Shown here: positions 16,157 through 41,172 of the stretch, in pieces
Layout of the letters: each line of letters begins with the position of its first letter
Position numbering within the stretch: position 1 is the first letter of the stretch
NCBI GenBank assembly: GCA_002770755.1
Contig: PCQY01000031.1
Coordinates: 1-41,172 of the forward strand
Origin: a candidate division WWE3 bacterium CG23_combo_of_CG06-09_8_20_14_all_40_14
GTDB lineage: Bacteria > Patescibacteriota > WWE3 > CG2-30-40-12
Reading direction: 5' to 3'
Length of the DNA: 41,172 bases
Made by a program: the position numbers and the translations under genes
Notes under the pieces: generated by a model
Told to the model about the DNA's origin: nothing
The model's database searches: none
Seen by the model: only the letters and a program-made list of their open reading frames with translations

Positions 16157-16498
16157 GTGCTTGCTAAAAGATATCTCTTAAATAAAAAGGAAGTTGCGGT
16201 TTTTAAACAGCGGGGAAAGAATGTTTTCCGAACCCCTTTTTTCAATGTTGCCGTTTTAAAAGTTTCTGATGAGGATATTGTAAAATTTTCCTTTGTTATA
16301 TCTAAAAAAGTGAGCGGGAGAGCGGTAGAAAGGAATAAAGTTAAAAGGTTGCTTGCGGAAATAATAAGGAATAAGCTGGACAAGTTCAAAAGGGGGTTTT
16401 ATATTGTGTTTTACATAAAGGATAAAATGTGTTCTGCTAACTATGAAGAAATTAATAATTTGGTTGATAAAAGCATATCAGAAATATCTCTCGCTTGA
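16157..16498 (+). CDS. rnpA: RNase P protein component
   Basis: 113 aa. GTG start immediately after the rpmH stop. RnpA pattern ([28 protein letters not shown]). Conserved rpmH-rnpA synteny. Confidence 0.85.
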
Positions 16499-16679
16499 TA
16501 CCGGTATTCCTAAAAAATTGCTCCCTGCCCTTAAAATATGCCGTTTCACCCCAAGTTGCTCGCAGTATGTTCTTGAAGCGGTGGAAAAATATGGTACAGT
16601 TAAAGGGTTATATTTAGGTTTTTTTCGCATCCTTCGCTGCAATCCTTTTAATAAAGGAGGAAGCGACCCGGTAAAATAA
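16443..16679 (+). CDS. yidD: Membrane protein insertion efficiency factor YidD
   Basis: [10 protein letters not shown]...[19 protein letters not shown]...RILRCNPF is the YidD signature. Overlaps the rnpA 3' end by 56 nt. Confidence 0.88.
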
Positions 16680-17431
16680 TGGGAATTAAAGACATCTTAA
16701 AAATTTCAATTTATGTACCGATACTAAATACATTAGTATTTTTTTACATTTTCTTAGGGCATAATTTGGGTTTTGCCATAGCCGCTTTAACAGTTTTAAT
16801 GCGAGCTATCCTAATTCCCGTTACCCTGCCTGCTCTTAAGGGCGCCGCAAAGCAAAAGGAGTTGGCGCCTCAGCTTTCGGAACTCCAGAAAAAGTACAAG
16901 GACAACAAAACACTGCTTGCCCAAAAGCAAATGGAGCTTTACAAAAATCATGGTTTTAACCCGGCGGCGGGTTGTCTGCCTCAAATTTTACAGCTGGTTA
17001 TTTTAATAGTTTTGTATCAGGTGCTTTTGGACATTTTTAGGCACCCCCCAGCTTACTTTAACGAGATGTTGTATTTTCCATTTCTAAAATTTGCTCAAAC
17101 AGATGTGTTTAACACCGCATTTCTTTATATGGATTTGGCGAAAAAGGATCCTTATTACATCCTTCCAATTTTGGCGGGTTTGTCCCAGCTTGTGCTTTCT
17201 AAATTGTCTTTGCCTCAAACAAATAAACTGGAGAAAATAGCGGAAAAAACACCCGACAAACAGGACGATGTAATGTATAATATGCAAAAGCAGATGATTT
17301 ATATGATGCCTGTAATGACTATTTTTATAGGCATTTCTCTGCCGTCTGGTTTGGTTTTATATTGGTTTTTGGCAACTCTTTTTGGACTTGCGCAGCAATG
17401 GATACTGAACAAAAAACTATTGAAAAATTAA
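16679..17431 (+). CDS. yidC: Membrane protein insertase YidC (short form)
   Basis: 250 aa. 60-kDa inner-membrane-protein core (MELYKNHGFNPAAGCLPQILQLVIL ... PSGLVLYWFLATLFGLAQQW). Confidence 0.88.
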   Translation: MGIKDILKISIYVPILNTLVFFYIFLGHNLGFAIAALTVLMRAILIPVTLPALKGAAKQKELAPQLSELQKKYKDNKTLLAQKQMELYKNHGFNPAAGCLPQILQLVILIVLYQVLLDIFRHPPAYFNEMLYFPFLKFAQTDVFNTAFLYMDLAKKDPYYILPILAGLSQLVLSKLSLPQTNKLEKIAEKTPDKQDDVMYNMQKQMIYMMPVMTIFIGISLPSGLVLYWFLATLFGLAQQWILNKKLLKN

Positions 17432-17847
17432 CCAAAGGGCTTTTGAAAAAGATGGAGCTTGAAGGTGCCGTTTCTGTTTCCGATTCCGAGGATCAGTTTT
17501 TTGTGGAAATAACGGGCAAAGATTTGGGCATTTTAATTGGCTATCATGGAGAAACTTTAAACGCGTTTCAACTAATTTTGAATATGAGTGTTTATAGAAA
17601 GTTGGGCAAGTGGATTAGAATTTTGGTGGATGTAGGAGATTACCGAAAAGAGAGGGGGGTCGCCTTGCGAAAAATAGCTGAGAGCGCGGCGCAGAAAGCG
17701 CGCTTTTTGCAAAAGAATGTGGAATTAAACCCAATGGCGCCTTATGAGAGAATGCTCATCCATACCGCTGTTTCTGAAATGGAAGGGGTTAAATCTGAAA
17801 GTGTGGGGGATAGCAGAAATCGCCGGGTGGTAATAAGCCCAGCTTAA
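17398..17847 (+). CDS. jag: Jag-like KH/R3H RNA-binding protein
   Basis: KH-like segment (GKDLGILIGYHGETLNAFQ) and R3H motif (ERMLIHTAV). The start is taken at ATG 17398 (MDTEQK). Conserved position after yidC. Confidence 0.8.
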   Translation: MDTEQKTIEKLTKGLLKKMELEGAVSVSDSEDQFFVEITGKDLGILIGYHGETLNAFQLILNMSVYRKLGKWIRILVDVGDYRKERGVALRKIAESAAQKARFLQKNVELNPMAPYERMLIHTAVSEMEGVKSESVGDSRNRRVVISPA

Positions 17848-17853
17848 AAAATT

Positions 17854-18969
17854 ATGAAATTTACCGTACTTCAAGCCGAATTGTTAAAAGGAATAAATGT
17901 CGTTAGTAAAGCGGTATCCTTTAGGGGGTCCCTGCCTATTTTGGGAAACATCCTACTGCAAAGCGATTCCGGCAGGCTTAAACTTTGCGCAACGGATTTG
18001 GATAAAAGCATTACCACTTGGGTAAGTGGAAAAATGGATAAGGAGGGGGCAATTACTGTTCCGGCAAGGATTTTGGCGGAGTTTGTTTCTAATCTCCCCC
18101 CGGGGCAGGTGGCGGGTGTTGTTGAAAATACAGAATTAACATTAAGCTCCCAAAAAGCCAGCGCGGTTTTTAACGGGGCGGATGCGGAAGAATTTCCTCT
18201 CCCGCAGAATTTGTCAAAAGGGGATTTTAGTTTTACCCTTAAGTCAAAAGATTTCCTAGTAGCTTTGTCAGAGGTTTATTTTGCCGCCGCTATGGACGAA
18301 TCCCGCCCTGTTTTAACGGGTGTGTATATGCATAAAAAGGCAAAAGAACTGACCCTTGCTGCGGTTGATGGTTTTAGATTATCTGAGAGAATTTTAAAAA
18401 CGGAGAAAAGTGAAAAATCGGAGTTGCCAAAGGATATCGTCCTTCCCGCAAGAACTTTGCTTGAGCTTGCCCGTCTTGCCCAAAATGCGGGGGATACGGT
18501 TAACATAGCCGTTTTGGAAACGGAAAATTTGGCAATTCTTGAGAGTGGGGACATGCTTGCCACCACAAGAATTTTGGAGGGAGATTTTCCCGATTATAAG
18601 AAAATAATTCCATCTGGAAGCAAAACCGCCATAGAGGTTTCGTTTGAAGAATTTTTTAATGCCGTTAGAATAGCCAATGTGTTTGCCAAGGACGCTTCAA
18701 ATGTTGTTAAAATTGTTATAAAACCGAAGGAAGGACTATTTGTTTTAGGCGAAGCGTTGGAAATAGGCCGTGATAAAACTTTTGTGCCAGCTAAAATAAC
18801 CGGCGAGGAAATGGAAATACTTTTTGACGGGAAATTTTTAAACGACTTTTTAAGCAATGTTAAATGCGAGAACCTTTTAATTGAAACAGAAGGGGCAGTG
18901 AACCCGGCAGTGTTTAAACTCAAAGAGAGAAATGATTATTTGCATATTATAATGCCCCGCCGGCCCTAG
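17854..18969 (+). CDS. dnaN: DNA polymerase III beta sliding clamp
   Basis: 371 aa. Typical clamp pattern (LPILGNILL, LKLCATDLD, RPVLTGV, AVDGFRLS, EGDFPDYKKIIP, MPRR). Confidence 0.92.
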   Translation: MKFTVLQAELLKGINVVSKAVSFRGSLPILGNILLQSDSGRLKLCATDLDKSITTWVSGKMDKEGAITVPARILAEFVSNLPPGQVAGVVENTELTLSSQKASAVFNGADAEEFPLPQNLSKGDFSFTLKSKDFLVALSEVYFAAAMDESRPVLTGVYMHKKAKELTLAAVDGFRLSERILKTEKSEKSELPKDIVLPARTLLELARLAQNAGDTVNIAVLETENLAILESGDMLATTRILEGDFPDYKKIIPSGSKTAIEVSFEEFFNAVRIANVFAKDASNVVKIVIKPKEGLFVLGEALEIGRDKTFVPAKITGEEMEILFDGKFLNDFLSNVKCENLLIETEGAVNPAVFKLKERNDYLHIIMPRRP

Positions 18970-19036: not shown

Positions 19037-20953
19037 TTATTGGATGCTTGAGATAACTGGCGGTACAGCCGTTTGAGGAGGATTTTTATCCGGCTCTTTT
19101 AGAGGTGAGCTGGATGTCTCTCTTGTCTGTGACGGTTTTAGGGATGCTTGTGGTTGCGAAGATTTTAATTCGCCCTCAAAAATTTTTTCCTCCTCTCTCA
19201 TCTGCGCAACTTCTTTCGGGTTTGTAGTTATAACTTTATGCTCCTCCTCCGATGCTATAATCTGCATTGCCACATGGTTATTCCCTGCAAAAAACAACCC
19301 TTCGCCAATACCCGCCGAAAGAAGAAGTCTCTTTTCTCCCTCGCTTAAATAAAAAACCTGCGCCAAACGGTCAATTGAAGCAGGATGCTGTTTCAATAAC
19401 ACCTGCATAGAAGAGTTTGTTACAATAGTTTTGCCGTACTCGCTTGACAAAAAGTCGTCCACATCGTGTGTTATCGTAGTTAAACCTAAATAATATTTCC
19501 TTGCCCGTTTAGCTATGGAGTACAAAAAGTTTGCCGAGTCTTCATTTTGCATAAGGTACCACGCCTCATCCACCACCAAAATACGCTTCTTTAAGTTATA
19601 TTTAATCCTTGTCCAAATGAAATCCAAAATAATGTATATGGCCACCGGTCTTAAAACATCTTCAAGCTCCCGCACCGAAAAAGCGGTGAAAGAATTTTCA
19701 ATGCTTACTGTGGAGCGCTGGTCAAAAATGCCCATCAAGGAGCCTTTAATATATCTTTCTAACCGTTCGGATAGATTTTTTGCTTCCGGCTCTTCCATAC
19801 CCAAAAGCACTTTATACAAATCTTCTAGAATAGGAGGCTCTCTCTTGTGCGTTTGAGGGTCCTGCGTAATACCCTTTATTTTGTAAGTCATCATCAGGGC
19901 TCTATCCAAAATTGCCTCTTCCGTATCACTAATACTGCCAAGCATTATTTTAAAGAGGGTGTGCAAGGTGAGTATTTTTAGGCCGAGCTGATTTTCCTTG
20001 TCCTCTCCGGAATACGGAGGCAGGTCAAAGGGGTTAATCTTTGCCTCGCTCCCTACGGAAAAGCTTATATAATCTCCGCCCAAAATTTTGGAAAGTCTTT
20101 CATATTCAGATTCAGGGTCTATTACAATTATATCCGTCCCAAATAAAATGGAACGCATGGCCTCTAACTTAACAAAATAACTCTTGCCGGCGCCGCTTTT
20201 GGCAAAAATAACCGAATTGGCGTTTTCTAAAGTAAATCTGTCAAATATAACTAGTGAACCATTATGCTTATTCACGCCATATAAAATACCCTCATTGGCG
20301 GTAAGTTCACTTGAAGTAAAAGGAAAAGTGGTGGCGACGCTGGTGGTGTCCATATTTCTGGTTATCAGGAGCTTATCAATACAAGAGGGGATAGTTGATT
20401 GAAAAGCGTCTTCCATTTGTAAAGTACATAATTTAGAGATAAGCATTAAAGAGCCTAATGTTGCTTCCACCTTTTTGGTTGTGCTGTTTAATTCCTCCAA
20501 AGAATCTGCCGGAACGGTTATGTAAAAAGAAAATTGGAAAAATCTTTCAATGCCTTTAACCAATTGTTCCTGCAAAGATTTGGCATCTTCTAAAGCCGCT
20601 TTAACGCCGGGATCCACAACCCTCCCTCTTTCGAAATCGGCATTTAGAGTCGCCTCCATCTCCGCAACTTTTCTTCTAAGGTCATCCAATACTCCCCTTG
20701 CTTCCACAGGGTAGTAAAACATAGACACCTCTAATGAATGGTCGTAGTTTATTATGGGGGCGAGCCAATTAGCGCCCACAAAACGGGGGTACCCCGAAAC
20801 AAACAGTGTTCTAAAATACTTTTCACCAATCTTAACGAAATTAAAATCCACCTCAATAGCGCTTGGGGCTATAATATCCTTTACATTAAGCATGCCCGCG
20901 GATAGGCGGTTATAGGCGTTAGAGGTAGTATTCTCTTTGCTTTTTTTGTTCAT
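19037..20953 (-). CDS. VirB4/TraC-family (DUF87-type) secretion ATPase, lacking the usual N-terminal segment
   Basis: 638 aa. KDIIAPSAIEVDF...GEKYFRTLFVSGYPRFV middle-domain pattern. Walker A KSGAGKSY. Walker B ILVVDEAW. S/P-rich C-terminal tail. Confidence 0.85.
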   Translation of the reverse strand: MNKKSKENTTSNAYNRLSAGMLNVKDIIAPSAIEVDFNFVKIGEKYFRTLFVSGYPRFVGANWLAPIINYDHSLEVSMFYYPVEARGVLDDLRRKVAEMEATLNADFERGRVVDPGVKAALEDAKSLQEQLVKGIERFFQFSFYITVPADSLEELNSTTKKVEATLGSLMLISKLCTLQMEDAFQSTIPSCIDKLLITRNMDTTSVATTFPFTSSELTANEGILYGVNKHNGSLVIFDRFTLENANSVIFAKSGAGKSYFVKLEAMRSILFGTDIIVIDPESEYERLSKILGGDYISFSVGSEAKINPFDLPPYSGEDKENQLGLKILTLHTLFKIMLGSISDTEEAILDRALMMTYKIKGITQDPQTHKREPPILEDLYKVLLGMEEPEAKNLSERLERYIKGSLMGIFDQRSTVSIENSFTAFSVRELEDVLRPVAIYIILDFIWTRIKYNLKKRILVVDEAWYLMQNEDSANFLYSIAKRARKYYLGLTTITHDVDDFLSSEYGKTIVTNSSMQVLLKQHPASIDRLAQVFYLSEGEKRLLLSAGIGEGLFFAGNNHVAMQIIASEEEHKVITTNPKEVAQMREEEKIFEGELKSSQPQASLKPSQTRETSSSPLKEPDKNPPQTAVPPVISSIQ

Positions 20954-21642
20954 TCCAGTTTTGGTTCAACTAAAGCTGTAGTGTAATCGGAAACAGTTTG
21001 TCTAATCTTCTGAAAACGGGCGCTCCCCGGATTGTATGTGTCATAAAAGAGATCCACCAAATCTTCTGTAAGCATCTGTTTTGCTTTGATATTCATTCTA
21101 GTAAACTCTTTGATAAGGTGGTCCCTCTTTGGTTCAAGCTGTACCTTTGCCGCTTTTAAGATTCCGTTTACATCCACATGAGTTTTTTTCTTGGTATCTA
21201 TTCCAATAAGCCCGTAAATCCAGGAGAATGGGGAACTTCCGGGGGTTGCAGTTTTAATATTATAGGGAATCGCCACATAAAAATTTTTGTCCAGCGCTTC
21301 GTTTTTGGTAACTAATTCTTCTACAAATTTTATGTATTTTTTGGTTTGCTCTTTTAATTTTTCATCCTGCTGAGCTTTTTCTGCTTTTCTTGTGTTTTCA
21401 ATGTATTTTGAGATATCCATTTTCTTGCTTCTTACCACAATTTGCATCGGAAAAGATAGAGAGTTTAGCATAGAGCTAAACGCCGCTATAGCGGCATCCT
21501 GTTCTCTGACGGATAAAAGGTCAAAATTAACCGAGGTTGTCTGCAAAACCATAGCCGCCCCGCCGTTTTTCAGAATGAGCAAGTTGTCTTTTATATCTTC
21601 TATATCTAAGTGGTCTTGTGTTGTGGCAAGTATTTTTGTCAT
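20950..21642 (-). CDS. Hypothetical protein resembling the detached N-terminal domain of Gram-positive VirB4 ATPases
   Basis: 230 aa. HLDIEDIKDNLLILKNGGAAMVLQTTSVNFDLLSVREQDAAIAAFSSMLNSLSFPMQIVV matches the remembered N-terminal pattern of Tn916 Orf16/PrgJ-type VirB4. ATGA overlaps at both ends. Confidence 0.5.
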   Translation of the reverse strand: MTKILATTQDHLDIEDIKDNLLILKNGGAAMVLQTTSVNFDLLSVREQDAAIAAFSSMLNSLSFPMQIVVRSKKMDISKYIENTRKAEKAQQDEKLKEQTKKYIKFVEELVTKNEALDKNFYVAIPYNIKTATPGSSPFSWIYGLIGIDTKKKTHVDVNGILKAAKVQLEPKRDHLIKEFTRMNIKAKQMLTEDLVDLFYDTYNPGSARFQKIRQTVSDYTTALVEPKLE

Positions 21643-23168
21643 TTGCGAACTGCCGAAAAGTCAAGCGCCTTTAACGGCTTACCTGTTAAAACTACATTAA
21701 TTATATCAAAATAATTCTCGCTGTTTAGCACTTCTATTTTATAAGTTCCGTTAGGCAGGGGTGTTGCGCTTATAAACTGTCCCAATTTATTGGTTTTTAG
21801 AGCTCTAATAGGTGAATCGTTATCATCTCTTATTATAAGGGTGGCATTTTCAAGTAAGAAACCCTCCTTATCTTTAACCATACCCCAAATAATATTGGGA
21901 TGGGCGTCTTCCTTATTCTCCTTCTGCGCCTTCTCTGAGGGGATTTCCTTGCGCTCCTTAACAACCGAACGGCTTAGGTTTCTAACTATCTCCTCGTTTT
22001 CGTTAGGGGGGTTTTCCTCCGTTTTTGAAGGCTCCTTTATTTGGATGGTTTCTTCTACCAAAACCTTTTTCTTCTCCAGCTCTTTTATTCTCTCGGCATA
22101 GGAAGAGAGCTGGGTCTTATAAGTTTCTTTGGTTTTGTCCAAACCTTGCATCTGCGCTTTCAAACTCTCCATTTCTGTGGATAGTTTTTTGTTTTCCTTT
22201 CTTAAAGTATTTACTATCTCCGTTAATTCTTTTTCTTTTGCCCGAGATTCTTCTTTATCGCCTAGTATAAGTTCGCTGGCGGGAAGAACAGCGCCCTCCG
22301 GAGAAAACTTTTCCTCGGCTTTTTTAAGAACTTTTCTAAGCTCCTGCGCCTTTCTTAAAAGCTCCTGCCTATGTTGATTATCCGACACAGGAGATGAGGG
22401 TTCCACATAAGTTATTGTTCTCAAAGGCCTTGTTCGCTTTGGTAGGATGATTTCCCCTTCCAGGGGTATGTGTTTTAATGTTCTTCCAACCGAAACATTG
22501 GTAACGGTTGAGATGTTTTTTAAATCTTCCTTTTTCCTAACCACGAGAATATCCTCCTTGAATTGCTCTTTTTTTGCCGGTTTCTCCTCTTTGGGGGGCT
22601 CCTCCAAGGAGACCGCAGTTTTGGCGGGAGCTGTTACAGTAGAAACGGAGCTTTTTAGAGTAGGAGGTACGGTCACATCAAAAGTAATCTTTTTTAGAAA
22701 ATCTTCCTCCCTTTTGTCCATAAAGGTTCCTGCTGGCGCGGGAAAACCCCCTAAATAATCCGTTATAGCTTTTCTGCTTTTGGCTGGAGCGAGCGCAACT
22801 ACCTCTTTTCTCAAAGAGTCGGCGTAATCCGCCAAAAAATACTCCCGTGACTCCAAGGCCTTTTGCCATACTCTCTGCGTGGGGGTGGAAATGCTTTTTA
22901 TAAAATTTTTAATCCACTGGTCTAATCCTCTGTCTCCAAGGGGCACAAAGGCAAGGGCTAAGCTTCCGAGCCCGCCGAAAACAATTAAAATGGCTTTCCA
23001 CAGAAAAGAGATTTTTGAAATTAATGCTAGATATACCGTTATCCCCCCAATTATTAAATACATAAACTGGCGGACAGTGAGGTCCCCTACAAGTTTAAAC
23101 TCAACACTCATAATGTTTTGGGGTACCGGGTGTTGACGATGCGCTGTTTGTTCCTCGTTCATTGGCAT
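21639..23168 (-). CDS. PrgI/VirB3-like membrane protein fused to an E/K-rich coiled coil and a carboxypeptidase-regulatory-like beta-sandwich
   Basis: 509 aa. N-terminus HPVPQNIMSVEFKLVGDLTVRQFMYL plus two TM helices, as in PrgI. About 250 aa of E/K-rich sequence follows. C-terminus GMVKDKEGFLLENATLIIRD...TNKLGQFISATPLPNGTYKIEV. Confidence 0.6.
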   Translation of the reverse strand: MPMNEEQTAHRQHPVPQNIMSVEFKLVGDLTVRQFMYLIIGGITVYLALISKISFLWKAILIVFGGLGSLALAFVPLGDRGLDQWIKNFIKSISTPTQRVWQKALESREYFLADYADSLRKEVVALAPAKSRKAITDYLGGFPAPAGTFMDKREEDFLKKITFDVTVPPTLKSSVSTVTAPAKTAVSLEEPPKEEKPAKKEQFKEDILVVRKKEDLKNISTVTNVSVGRTLKHIPLEGEIILPKRTRPLRTITYVEPSSPVSDNQHRQELLRKAQELRKVLKKAEEKFSPEGAVLPASELILGDKEESRAKEKELTEIVNTLRKENKKLSTEMESLKAQMQGLDKTKETYKTQLSSYAERIKELEKKKVLVEETIQIKEPSKTEENPPNENEEIVRNLSRSVVKERKEIPSEKAQKENKEDAHPNIIWGMVKDKEGFLLENATLIIRDDNDSPIRALKTNKLGQFISATPLPNGTYKIEVLNSENYFDIINVVLTGKPLKALDFSAVRK

Positions 23169-39552: not shown

Positions 39553-39709
39553 ACGACTGGCTTACATTATGCTTGGTGTGTATACAAAACACCTGTATTT
39601 TTTTGTAATTTTGCGAATTTATAAAATCCATATTAGCTGTGGATAACTTCGTCATTGATTTTCTACTTTCTTTCTATTATTATATTAGTATAAGAATGAA
39701 GTTAAATTT

Positions 39710-41172
39710 ATGATTACAAAAAAACAAAAAGCAATCTTGGACTTCGTGAAAACTTACTCAAAAAGAAGGGGGTATGCTCCGTCTCTCGCGGAAATACAAA
39801 AGAACTTTAAAATGGCTTCCGTTTCAACGGCACATTTTTATATTTCTAAATTAAAAAAGGCTGGATATTTAGAAAAAATAAAAAATAAAGCGCGGGCAAT
39901 TAGTATTCCCGAAAAAGAACCGTTAGTAAAAATCCCGCTCTTGGGCATTATTGCCGCTGGCCAACCAATAGAAGCTATTGAAAACAAAGAATCAATCGTC
40001 GTTCCTAAAAGTAAATTACCGCGAGCAACCGAAGTATATGCTCTGCGCGTACAGGGCGACAGTATGATTGATGAAAATATCAATGACGGAGATACTATTT
40101 TAATTAAAAAACAAAATATAGCCGAGAACGGAGAAAAAGTGGTCGCGCTTCTTAATGGAAACGAGGCAACGCTCAAAACTTTTTATAAAGAAAAAAATCA
40201 AATAAGATTACAACCGGCAAATAAAAATTATCAACCAATTATAGTAAAAAGAGGTCAAGATTTTTCTTTGCAAGGAGTTTTGTTTGATGTAATAAAAACT
40301 AGCGAAACAATTCAGCCACTCCAAACCTTTGTTTTGCCTTCTGTTAAATTTAAGACAGCCGTATGGAACAAAATCTGTCCTTATTTTCAAAGTAATAACA
40401 ACGACTTCGTCCTTTATCACGGAAATTGTCTTGATATACTGAATCAATTACCACCAAACTCAATTGATATGGTCTTTGCCGACCCGCCATACAATCTTTC
40501 CAATGGTGGATTTTCTCTTCATGCCGGGAAAAGAGTAAGCGTCAATAAGGGCAATTGGGATAAAAGCAAAGGATTTAAAGATGATTATGATTTTCACTAC
40601 AAGTGGCTTGAAGCATGCAGAAGAGTTTTAAAATCAAATGGCACTCTTTGGGTTAGCGGAACATATCATTCAATTTATCAATGTGGTTACGCTCTTCAAT
40701 CTCTCGGATACCATATTATGAATGATATTACATGGTTTAAGCCAAACGGCTCACCTAATTTGAGCTGTCGTTATTTCACAGCATCGCACGAAACTTTAAT
40801 TTGGGCGCGAAAAGACAAAAATGCAAAACATTTTTTCAACTACAACCTGATGAAAAATGGAGATTGGTCGGAAGATTTTATCAAGAAACCAAACCTGCAA
40901 ATGCGTTCGGTTTGGGCAATTTATCCACCTAAAAAGTCGGAAAAAGTTTTTGGAAAACATCCAACACAAAAACCAGTTGAACTATTAAAGAGAATTATTC
41001 TTGCCTCAACAAAACAAGGAGCCACTATTCTTGACCCGTTCTCTGGAAGTTCAACTACCGGAGTAGCATCAGAGATGATTGGCGGAAGAAAATTTATTGG
41101 AATTGATACGGAACGAGATTTTTTAGATGTTTCAATTAGAAGATTTAAAGAAATACAATCTTTATCTCCGAA
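39710..41172 (+). CDS. LexA (wHTH + S24 autopeptidase) fused in frame to a beta-class N6/N4 DNA methyltransferase; 3'-partial
   Basis: Hand-translated ORF of at least 487 codons with no stop through the window end. LexA-type wHTH at aa 1-70. Ala83-Gly84 cleavage motif (GIIAAGQPIEA). Ser118 in GDSM and Lys156 in ATLKTF. After a linker of about 45 aa: MTase motif IV DPPY (aa 258-261), HPTQKP, and motif I ILDPFSGSSTTG (aa 440-451). Confidence 0.8.
   Translation, partial: MITKKQKAILDFVKTYSKRRGYAPSLAEIQKNFKMASVSTAHFYISKLKKAGYLEKIKNKARAISIPEKEPLVKIPLLGIIAAGQPIEAIENKESIVVPKSKLPRATEVYALRVQGDSMIDENINDGDTILIKKQNIAENGEKVVALLNGNEATLKTFYKEKNQIRLQPANKNYQPIIVKRGQDFSLQGVLFDVIKTSETIQPLQTFVLPSVKFKTAVWNKICPYFQSNNNDFVLYHGNCLDILNQLPPNSIDMVFADPPYNLSNGGFSLHAGKRVSVNKGNWDKSKGFKDDYDFHYKWLEACRRVLKSNGTLWVSGTYHSIYQCGYALQSLGYHIMNDITWFKPNGSPNLSCRYFTASHETLIWARKDKNAKHFFNYNLMKNGDWSEDFIKKPNLQMRSVWAIYPPKKSEKVFGKHPTQKPVELLKRIILASTKQGATILDPFSGSSTTGVASEMIGGRKFIGIDTERDFLDVSIRRFKEIQSLSP

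Follow-up and report, generated by a model that had tools for sequence, protein, structure and literature searches.

What does a complete LexA repressor do at the front of a DNA methyltransferase? The question is raised by the gene at the end of contig PCQY01000031.1 (GenBank assembly GCA_002770755.1) from the candidate division WWE3 bacterium CG23_combo_of_CG06-09_8_20_14_all_40_14, a stretch of 41,172 nucleotides (nt) that was analysed as a whole and is called the window below. Starting at position 39710, this gene joins a LexA with its DNA-binding and self-cleavage domains to an amino-methyltransferase in a single reading frame. The reading that we prefer, at a probability of roughly 0.6, is that the product serves a mobile Type II restriction-modification (R-M) system as its modification enzyme, with a built-in, self-cleaving LexA autorepressor that would make it responsive to DNA damage.

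Architecture and conservation of the fusion

Read on the + strand from the ATG at 39710, the sequence stays open up to the end of the window, a single frame of 487 codons with zero stops, as a preliminary description of the locus, made from the sequence alone, had reported. The window end cuts the open reading frame (ORF) two codons before its stop, because full-length relatives have about 489 amino acids (aa); the nearest fused relative ends in SLSPKR. The gene and its parts are as follows, HTH denoting a helix-turn-helix.

39710..41172, + strand: LexA-methyltransferase fusion ORF, 487 codons, cut by the window end 2 codons before the stop
39713..39898, + strand: LexA winged HTH (wHTH) DNA-binding domain, residues 2-63 (Pfam PF01726 LexA_DNA_bind, 2e-13)
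39935..40282, + strand: S24 self-cleavage and dimerisation domain, residues 76-191 (Pfam PF00717 Peptidase_S24, 6e-31)
39956-39961, + strand: scissile Ala83-Gly84 bond of the S24 domain
40061-40063, + strand: Ser118 of the catalytic dyad, S24 domain
40175-40177, + strand: Lys156 of the catalytic dyad, S24 domain
40301..40381, + strand: variable linker of about 25 aa, residues 198-224, the site of domain shuffling (22% mean identity)
40382..41170, + strand: beta-class, CcrM-like amino-methyltransferase, residues 225-487 (Pfam PF01555)
40481-40492, + strand: DPPY (motif IV), residues 258-261
41039-41062, + strand: FSGSSTTG (motif I), residues 444-451; the longer form DPFSGSSTTG covers 442-451

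A hidden Markov model search of the kind suggested in the preliminary description finds LexA_DNA_bind, Peptidase_S24 and N6_N4_Mtase, all three. The LexA hallmarks named there (wHTH, Ala83-Gly84, Ser118 and Lys156) lie at the positions given, and both Pfam and the NCBIfam lexA equivalog TIGR00498 agree, the latter with 171 bits over residues 2-197 against a cut-off of 110.95. The fusion has the wHTH that defines a LexA (PF01726), aligned with those of T. maritima and E. coli LexA and with STAHFYISKL within its recognition helix, and an S24 domain with the Ala-Gly scissile bond and the Ser-Lys dyad. The methyltransferase is likewise beta-class as claimed: DPPY precedes DPFSGSSTTG, which is the beta-class order of motifs IV and I, and N6_N4_Mtase (PF01555) spans residues 252-475 at 4e-55 with 188 bits against a cut-off of 26.7. 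Only the linker needs correction. It had been put at about 45 aa and is about 25 aa long, since the stand-alone methylase relatives already set in near residue 225, ahead of the Pfam boundary.

The same three domains, in proteins of about 480-500 aa that are 60-96% identical, occur in at least 120 database clusters (90% identity), and this backs the earlier view of a single gene. Fused sequences number in the hundreds across the ultra-small Patescibacteria, and the named homologues belong to Parcubacteria, Woesebacteria and other Patescibacteria of the candidate phyla radiation (CPR); the LexA-methyltransferase fusion is not rare. An assembly or frameshift error that merged two neighbouring genes has next to no probability. 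Some genomes do have adjacent but separate lexA and methylase genes (L033, L038 and L052, where L-numbers denote fetched loci of relatives compared with the window), yet the junction design is conserved over 187 distinct in-frame fusions that come from independent samples and assemblers; these fusions and the 120 or more clusters refute such an artefact. A viral origin was also rejected: only four viral contigs matched, none of them with the fusion.

Conservation within the fused proteins is uneven. Ala83, Gly84, Ser118 and Lys156 are invariant in 43 aligned homologues and in 187/187 distinct fused proteins, so that the Ser/Lys dyad survives realignment; mean identity to the window protein across the same 187 is 52% in the wHTH and 22% in the linker. 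Judged from these alignments, all LexA cleavage hallmarks are under strict selection. In E. coli LexA, the pocket for Phe203 of RecA consists of V79, V82, F111, L113, V146 and V153, the sixth of which is reported as variable (bioRxiv 10.1101/2023.10.30.564768). Alignment to E. coli LexA identifies L78, I81, Y110, L112, V145 and A153 as the counterparts in the fusion, and the first five positions are conserved in the fusion family. An invariant dyad and scissile bond together with a conserved pocket favour a working RecA-responsive protease. Because cleavage hallmarks and the RecA-F203 pocket have been kept, a coupling of RecA/DNA-damage sensing to methylation would remain the most sensible reading of the architecture.

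Methyltransferase partners and the LexA cassette

In a scan of one genome per species, at least 598 species have a close relative of the methylase. The best 87 loci, which were analysed, comprise 19 fusions and 68 stand-alone copies of the enzyme (265-280 aa, 65-77% identical). A small ORF from one of four unrelated families follows 0-15 nt downstream on the same strand in 71 of these 87 loci:

33 loci: 173-aa PD..E.K protein
24 loci: MutH/Sau3AI-like protein, matched by a PADLOC Type II restriction endonuclease model at 8e-10
10 loci: 256-aa DUF6996/6997 protein, matched by a PADLOC Type II restriction endonuclease model at 1e-34
4 loci: protein of about 200 aa, matched by a PADLOC Type II restriction endonuclease model at 3e-22

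The methylase part of the window gene itself matches PADLOC MTase_II PDLC03371 with 314 bits. By these associations, the CcrM-like methyltransferase is best described as a Type II R-M component and not as an odd SOS regulator. The preliminary description had set the fusion against the HTH-methyltransferases that autoregulate R-M systems. Its three-domain fusion and strictly selected cleavage hallmarks stand, but that contrast does not: nuclease partners in relatives and a cognate-looking operator in the promoter indicate a device of the same type, whose head is a LexA.

In a rough neighbour-joining tree of the methyltransferase domain, fusions turn up in dispersed positions and the types of nuclease are mixed, and a single origin of the fusion was rejected on this dispersal. 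In four loci (L033, L038, L052 and L024) the methylase gene has a more distant lexA, encoded separately, directly upstream; since distant lexA lineages also precede the methylase, the link between LexA and R-M has arisen more than once. The Nomurabacteria loci L033 (5635-5700) and L038 (5691-5760) have a promoter with a DnaA box, TTGACA, a classical GAAC-N4-GTTC LexA box and TATACT, followed by an operon in the order small ORF, lexA, CcrM-like methylase and 173-aa nuclease.

A metagenome scan with the LexA part alone returned at least 550 matching stretches. Of 96 pooled loci with this LexA family, 87 carry it in fused form and 3 unfused, and the other 6 extend past the end of their contig. 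The C-terminal partners of this LexA cassette belong to at least 13 unrelated beta-class families, which include the following.

CcrM-like class: 135 of 187 fused sequences, including the window
Second DPPY family: accompanied by a convergent TaqI-like restriction endonuclease (Pfam RE_TaqI, 3e-38)
Several SPPY families (N4-cytosine-type): one accompanied by an HNH/EndoVII restriction endonuclease (PADLOC, 2e-23)
DPPF-type and other families: further partners of the cassette

Two of the loci, L001 and L092, share one sequence through ...SETIQPLQTFVLPS, after which they go on into methyltransferases that are unrelated to each other, which places the fusion joint in the linker because their identity stops there. 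At L109 (664-2119), an unfused cassette lies directly ahead of a DpnI-family methyl-directed nuclease (Pfam DpnI, 5e-83). An exhaustive HMMER search with the cassette covered 1.84 billion representatives and split clearly by score: the top approximately 57 matches (at least 165 bits) are mostly 390-890 aa long with the cassette at residues 1-198, and ordinary 200-aa LexA proteins follow below 165 bits. All ten long matches that were examined combine LexA with a DNA methyltransferase. That one head sits on methyltransferases of every chemistry is hard to explain unless it is of service to the R-M system. The LexA part has the look of a portable control module for R-M systems, probably a DNA-damage-sensitive one. 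Proteins P0388, P0393, P0415, P0434 and P0439 (615-890 aa) carry the cassette on a gamma-class N6_Mtase/Eco57I/TaqI_C or a C5 cytosine methyltransferase.

Promoter, neighbouring genes and target

The region ahead of the fusion gene contains three elements:

39638..39646, + strand: TGTGGATAA, reverse complement of the exact DnaA-box consensus TTATCCACA, 9 nt upstream of the -35
39655..39683, + strand: sigma-70-like promoter with -35 TTGATT (39655-39660), a 17-nt spacer and -10 TATTAT (39678-39683), found by consensus scan with 9/12 matches
39660..39676, + strand: predicted operator TTTCTA-N5-TTTCTA in the promoter spacer, 11-bp period, with copies at 39660-65 and 39671-76

Promoters of related cassettes show the same layout, and repeats of period 11 occur in the cassette's own promoter at 93/96 loci. 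The repeats vary with the protein: recognition helices of the type ST[AIV]H-[F/Y] pair with TTCTA or TTCGA repeats in all 65 cases, and H-[Q/E] helices pair with TTCGG repeats in 21 of 22 (Fisher 2e-20, with counts uncorrected for shared ancestry). Such pairing is what a cognate repressor and operator would be predicted to produce. The exact TTTCTA-N5-TTTCTA sequence occurs once in the 41-kb window; outside the cassettes' own promoters, 697 kb of related loci contain only chance-level matches. Neither of the canonical SOS boxes, GAAC-N4-GTTC or CTGT-N8-ACAG, occurs in the window.

Of 89 non-redundant cassette promoters, 63 have the DnaA box exactly and 79 have it with at most one mismatch, independent of helix type; its distance from the repeats is constant. 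It also forms the exact left boundary of the mobile LexA-methylase module, being the point at which homology to L003 and L001 starts. It is found upstream of the TTGACA of a few other genes as well, and not ahead of most stand-alone methylases. It is likely to be read by a separate conserved factor, most simply DnaA. The TTATCCACA box lies upstream of the -35 of lexA-type promoters across Patescibacteria, fused or not, and of a few other genes (L024, L033, L038, L050, L052, L069, L060, L027 and L012). DnaA-box-like 9-mers with at most one mismatch number 27 in the window against 9.3 expected (about 3-fold) and form no clear cluster.

In the window, homology to L003, L001, L092, L094 and L095 sets in at 39631-39638, with no relationship between the flanks upstream. 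The closest relative, L003, has 95% nucleotide identity that starts abruptly at 39638 and continues through the window end. L003 and L001 share about 3 kb, consisting of the promoter, the fusion gene and then, on the opposite strand, genes for a 191-aa protein (X191) and a 274-aa protein; L003 additionally has an XRE-type HTH gene in this convergent operon. Because these roughly 3 kb are shared between unrelated flanks, the fusion gene belongs to a small mobile module. The convergent genes are:

L003 2373-2948 and L001 11453-12028, - strand: X191 gene, also in L006, L008, L009 and others
L003 3013-3837, - strand: gene for the 274-aa protein, behind the HTH gene (AlphaFold2 (AF2) model, mean pLDDT confidence 84)
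L003 3839-4081, - strand: 80-aa XRE-type HTH gene, resembling R-M control proteins

X191 proteins have 188-196 aa and form a family of about 227 members, all from Patescibacteria and 70-96% identical (AF2 pLDDT 89). Their genes are always convergent to, and directly behind, a CcrM-like methylase or its nuclease; they are present in 13/25 fused loci of the CcrM-like class and in 0/46 loci of other methylase classes. The 274-aa protein and the XRE-type HTH protein are candidates for a new restriction endonuclease and its C protein.

The rest of the window is ordinary chromosome, with rnpA-yidC-jag-dnaN, dnaG-rpoD, recJ, an AddA-like helicase-nuclease, glutamate dehydrogenase, a P-type ATPase and genes resembling a type IV secretion system (T4SS). 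The order at 16157-18969 is rnpA, yidC, jag/KhpB and dnaN, with no dnaA between. A T4SS/conjugation-like pair at 19037-23168 (- strand) encodes a VirB4/TraG-like P-loop ATPase of 638 aa and a PrgI-domain protein of 509 aa. Large serine recombinases adjoin many stand-alone methylase-nuclease copies (L031, L042, L044, L045, L062, L066, L069, L074, L078, L082 and L165), which suggests that the stand-alone module rides on integrative elements.

The target of the methylase was approached through its closest solved structure, CcrM 6PBD (213 bits, about 50% identity). The NCBIfam CcrM equivalog NF050803 gives 244 bits against a cut-off of 830. The fusion ends a few residues past the catalytic domain and has no counterpart of the 80-residue C-terminal DNA-binding segment of CcrM; the alignment to 6PBD ends at chain residue 265 of 366. 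Five of 11 GANTC-invariant residues in Loop-2B and Loop-45 remain in place (W57, D58, N120, P123 and N124). R44 corresponds to H271 and R129 to Y355, which an Arg precedes by one position; L42, F125, G127 and N132 have given way to other residues as well. CcrM contacts allow no safe call of specificity, since key residues, including the base-reading R44 and R129, differ. ELK and QxRxK are retained in the MutH-like partner, and a Dam-like D12 methylase lies beside five loci, a DpnII-like layout with the beta-class methylase; partner motifs and layout give only a hint of GATC. Word counts in the window (observed against expected) are 71 and 81 for GANTC, 21 and 88 for GATC, 0 and 45 for ACGT, 7 and 46 for TCGA, 31 and 120 for GGCC, and 30 and 73 for CATG. 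They were rejected as a clue to the target: GANTC is close to its expected count, and GATC is depleted, but so are ACGT, TCGA, GGCC and CATG. Such strong tetranucleotide avoidance marks this genome as one under intense restriction pressure.

Mechanism, alternatives and known systems

In the mechanism that we infer, which extends from DNA binding, RecA-stimulated cleavage and the direction of regulation to target, DnaA binding and physiological purpose, the LexA head would dimerise and bind TTTCTA-N5-TTTCTA in the spacer of its own promoter. Occupancy of the promoter would keep methyltransferase expression low and self-limited, and a nuclease gene that comes next in the same operon would be throttled too. 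RecA filaments on single-stranded DNA (ssDNA), formed upon DNA damage, self-restriction, recombination or entry of single strands, would trigger cleavage between Ala83 and Gly84. The cut would part the DNA-binding domain from the rest, lift repression of the promoter and set an S24-methyltransferase fragment free. Its purpose would most likely be to supply more modification capacity when unmodified or broken DNA appears, whether through repair synthesis, recombination, self-restriction or incoming strands, as a Type II counterpart of restriction alleviation. The DnaA box upstream of the -35 would probably add a replication-linked input.

Several points weigh against this account. Derepression of operons in which the nuclease gene follows the methylase gene would raise the nuclease too, so the purpose of restriction alleviation is not self-evident. 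Co-variation of helix and repeats could partly stem from co-inheritance of a physically linked helix and promoter. No recognisable nuclease was found in the window's own clade (L001, L003, L008 and L009), homologue searches, AF2 models and Foldseek comparison with the PDB gave no family or fold match for the 274-aa protein and X191, and the window copy could be a solitary methylase. It is probably not a lone one, because the 95%-identical L003 has the convergent operon for the XRE/C-like HTH, 274-aa and 191-aa proteins downstream. Lastly, the 290 aa added at the C-terminus might get in the way of docking in the groove of the RecA filament; in E. coli LexA, steric bulk matters when it is on the N-terminal domain (bioRxiv 10.1101/2023.10.30.564768).

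A wider reading, which we entertain tentatively and at less than even odds, is that Patescibacteria evolved a general portable SOS sensor for R-M systems, in which the LexA cassette and its DnaA-box/direct-repeat promoter were grafted onto all methyltransferase classes and RecA filaments reset the methylase dose. Resetting would shift the balance of modification and restriction when ssDNA arises from damage, self-restriction, recombination or DNA uptake, in cells regarded as naturally competent and DNA-scavenging, and the fused S24 domain may even serve to dock its methylase onto the RecA filament. It is unlikely that the fusion is instead the genome's global SOS repressor carrying an orphan housekeeping methylase of the CcrM/Dam kind, with damage reprogramming methylation genome-wide. 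The LexA part does exceed the NCBIfam equivalog cut-off, the methylase is as highly conserved as housekeeping methylases are (at least 598 species representatives, 65-77% identity), its closest relatives have no recognisable nuclease alongside, the window is ordinary chromosome (rnpA-yidC-jag-dnaN, dnaG-rpoD) and the promoter contains a DnaA box. Modularity and mobility are the strongest arguments to the contrary: the cassette sits on many unrelated methyltransferase chemistries with bona fide nuclease partners, and the 3-kb module moves between unrelated flanks. Operator half-sites also vary among cassettes, a second operator is absent in the 41 kb, and the cassette clade is set apart from ordinary 200-aa LexA by score.

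We also doubt that the LexA part is only a dimerising DNA-binding head on a plain SsoII-like methylase, with cleavage unused or triggered by something other than RecA. Autoregulation by itself would account for the operator, and the C-terminal bulk may impede docking on the RecA filament, but mere dimerisation would not keep the catalytic dyad fixed; Ala-Gly, Ser and Lys are unchanged in 187/187 proteins while the wHTH averages 52% and the linker 22% identity, and the RecA-F203 pocket is conserved. Least credible among the functional readings is a suicide switch, in which RecA activation would destroy the methylase through degradation of its fragments and a long-lived nuclease would kill the damaged or infected cell. 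In its favour, ClpXP and Lon remove the fragments of E. coli LexA. R-M systems behave as toxin-antitoxin pairs, a point made separately in the R-M literature (PMC3874152). Cleavage would, however, split off only the DNA-binding domain and leave the S24-methyltransferase part intact, and derepression would replenish the protein.

R-M systems must weigh the killing of invaders against the cutting of their own chromosome. Known controllers, namely C proteins and HTH-methylases, sense only their own dose; a LexA controller would read a DNA-damage or ssDNA signal. LexA-controlled R-M would link immunity, repair, recombination and possibly DNA uptake in a huge and barely studied radiation of tiny genomes, and that one cassette was grafted onto many methyltransferases time and again speaks for a strong selective advantage. 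If true, the portable-sensor reading would amount to a previously unrecognised layer of R-M regulation and a Type II form of restriction alleviation. Predicted repressor/operator pairs are on offer for further work (His-Phe/Tyr helices with TTTCTA repeats, His-Gln/Glu helices with TTCGG repeats), and the DnaA-box element and the conserved X191 are further leads.

The preliminary description had allowed that the architecture might prove both common and already characterised. It is common, but we found no description of LexA-methyltransferase fusions or of LexA-controlled R-M in the literature, where a passing mention in a 2017 paper on the SOS response of Patescibacteria is possible. The fusion sequences became public as early as the first CPR genomes, where they go by names such as 'methylase protein'. 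Phage lambda CI, SetR of SXT and CapH/CapP of the cyclic-oligonucleotide-based antiphage signalling system (CBASS) are known S24 or protease-controlled cases in which a repressor that stands guard over a mobile or defence module is inactivated by proteolysis upon DNA damage. The fusion differs from them in having its repressor covalently built into the effector enzyme, and in that an R-M system forms the module; the C-like HTH protein of L003, which is not the fusion, matches capH in PADLOC. In Type I restriction alleviation, ClpXP degrades HsdR, and DpnA of the DpnII system is induced in competence through ComX. Both are functional analogies only, in that unmodified self or incoming DNA is protected upon ssDNA or damage signals, and neither involves a LexA fusion.

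Comparison with LexA itself (E. coli 1JHH/8TRG, T. maritima 3K2Z) reveals the same two domains, cleavage site, Ser-Lys dyad, RecA-F203 pocket and a predicted operator in its own promoter. Unlike an SOS LexA, the fusion has a 290-aa C-terminal methyltransferase, travels with R-M genes, has a direct-repeat operator and gives no sign of a regulon in 41 kb. Direct-repeat LexA boxes are familiar from Alphaproteobacteria (GTTC-N7-GTTC). The methyltransferase shares with CcrM and M.HinfI (GANTC) the order of motifs IV and I, DPPY and residues W57/D58/N120/P123/N124; unlike them, it has nuclease partners, and so is in general not an orphan cell-cycle methylase, and it has lost the C-terminal DNA-binding segment. 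C proteins of Type II R-M systems are dedicated transcription factors that time and balance R and M expression, as the fusion head is proposed to be, and the convergent operon of the fusion's closest relatives encodes a C-like XRE protein. Unlike the fusion, C proteins are free-standing HTH_3 proteins of 70-100 aa that have no sensory or proteolytic part.

The nearest parallels are the R-M methyltransferases M.SsoII, M.Ecl18kI, M.EcoRII, M.ScrFIA and M.MspI, whose N-terminal HTH domains repress their own promoters; the 2014 review of R-M regulation that describes them makes no mention of LexA fusions (PMC3874152). The fusion resembles these enzymes in its N-terminal DNA-binding domain, its predicted operator overlapping the methylase promoter and its probable place in a Type II R-M module. 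It differs in that its head is a complete LexA, wHTH plus S24 protease, with a predicted irreversible switch-off by self-cleavage, in that the operator is a direct repeat of 11-bp period, and in that the head has been shuffled over many methyltransferase classes; it is an analogue of the SsoII-type methylases and not a homologue. Autoregulating HTH-methyltransferases were thus known already, and what is new here is that the head is a full self-cleaving LexA.

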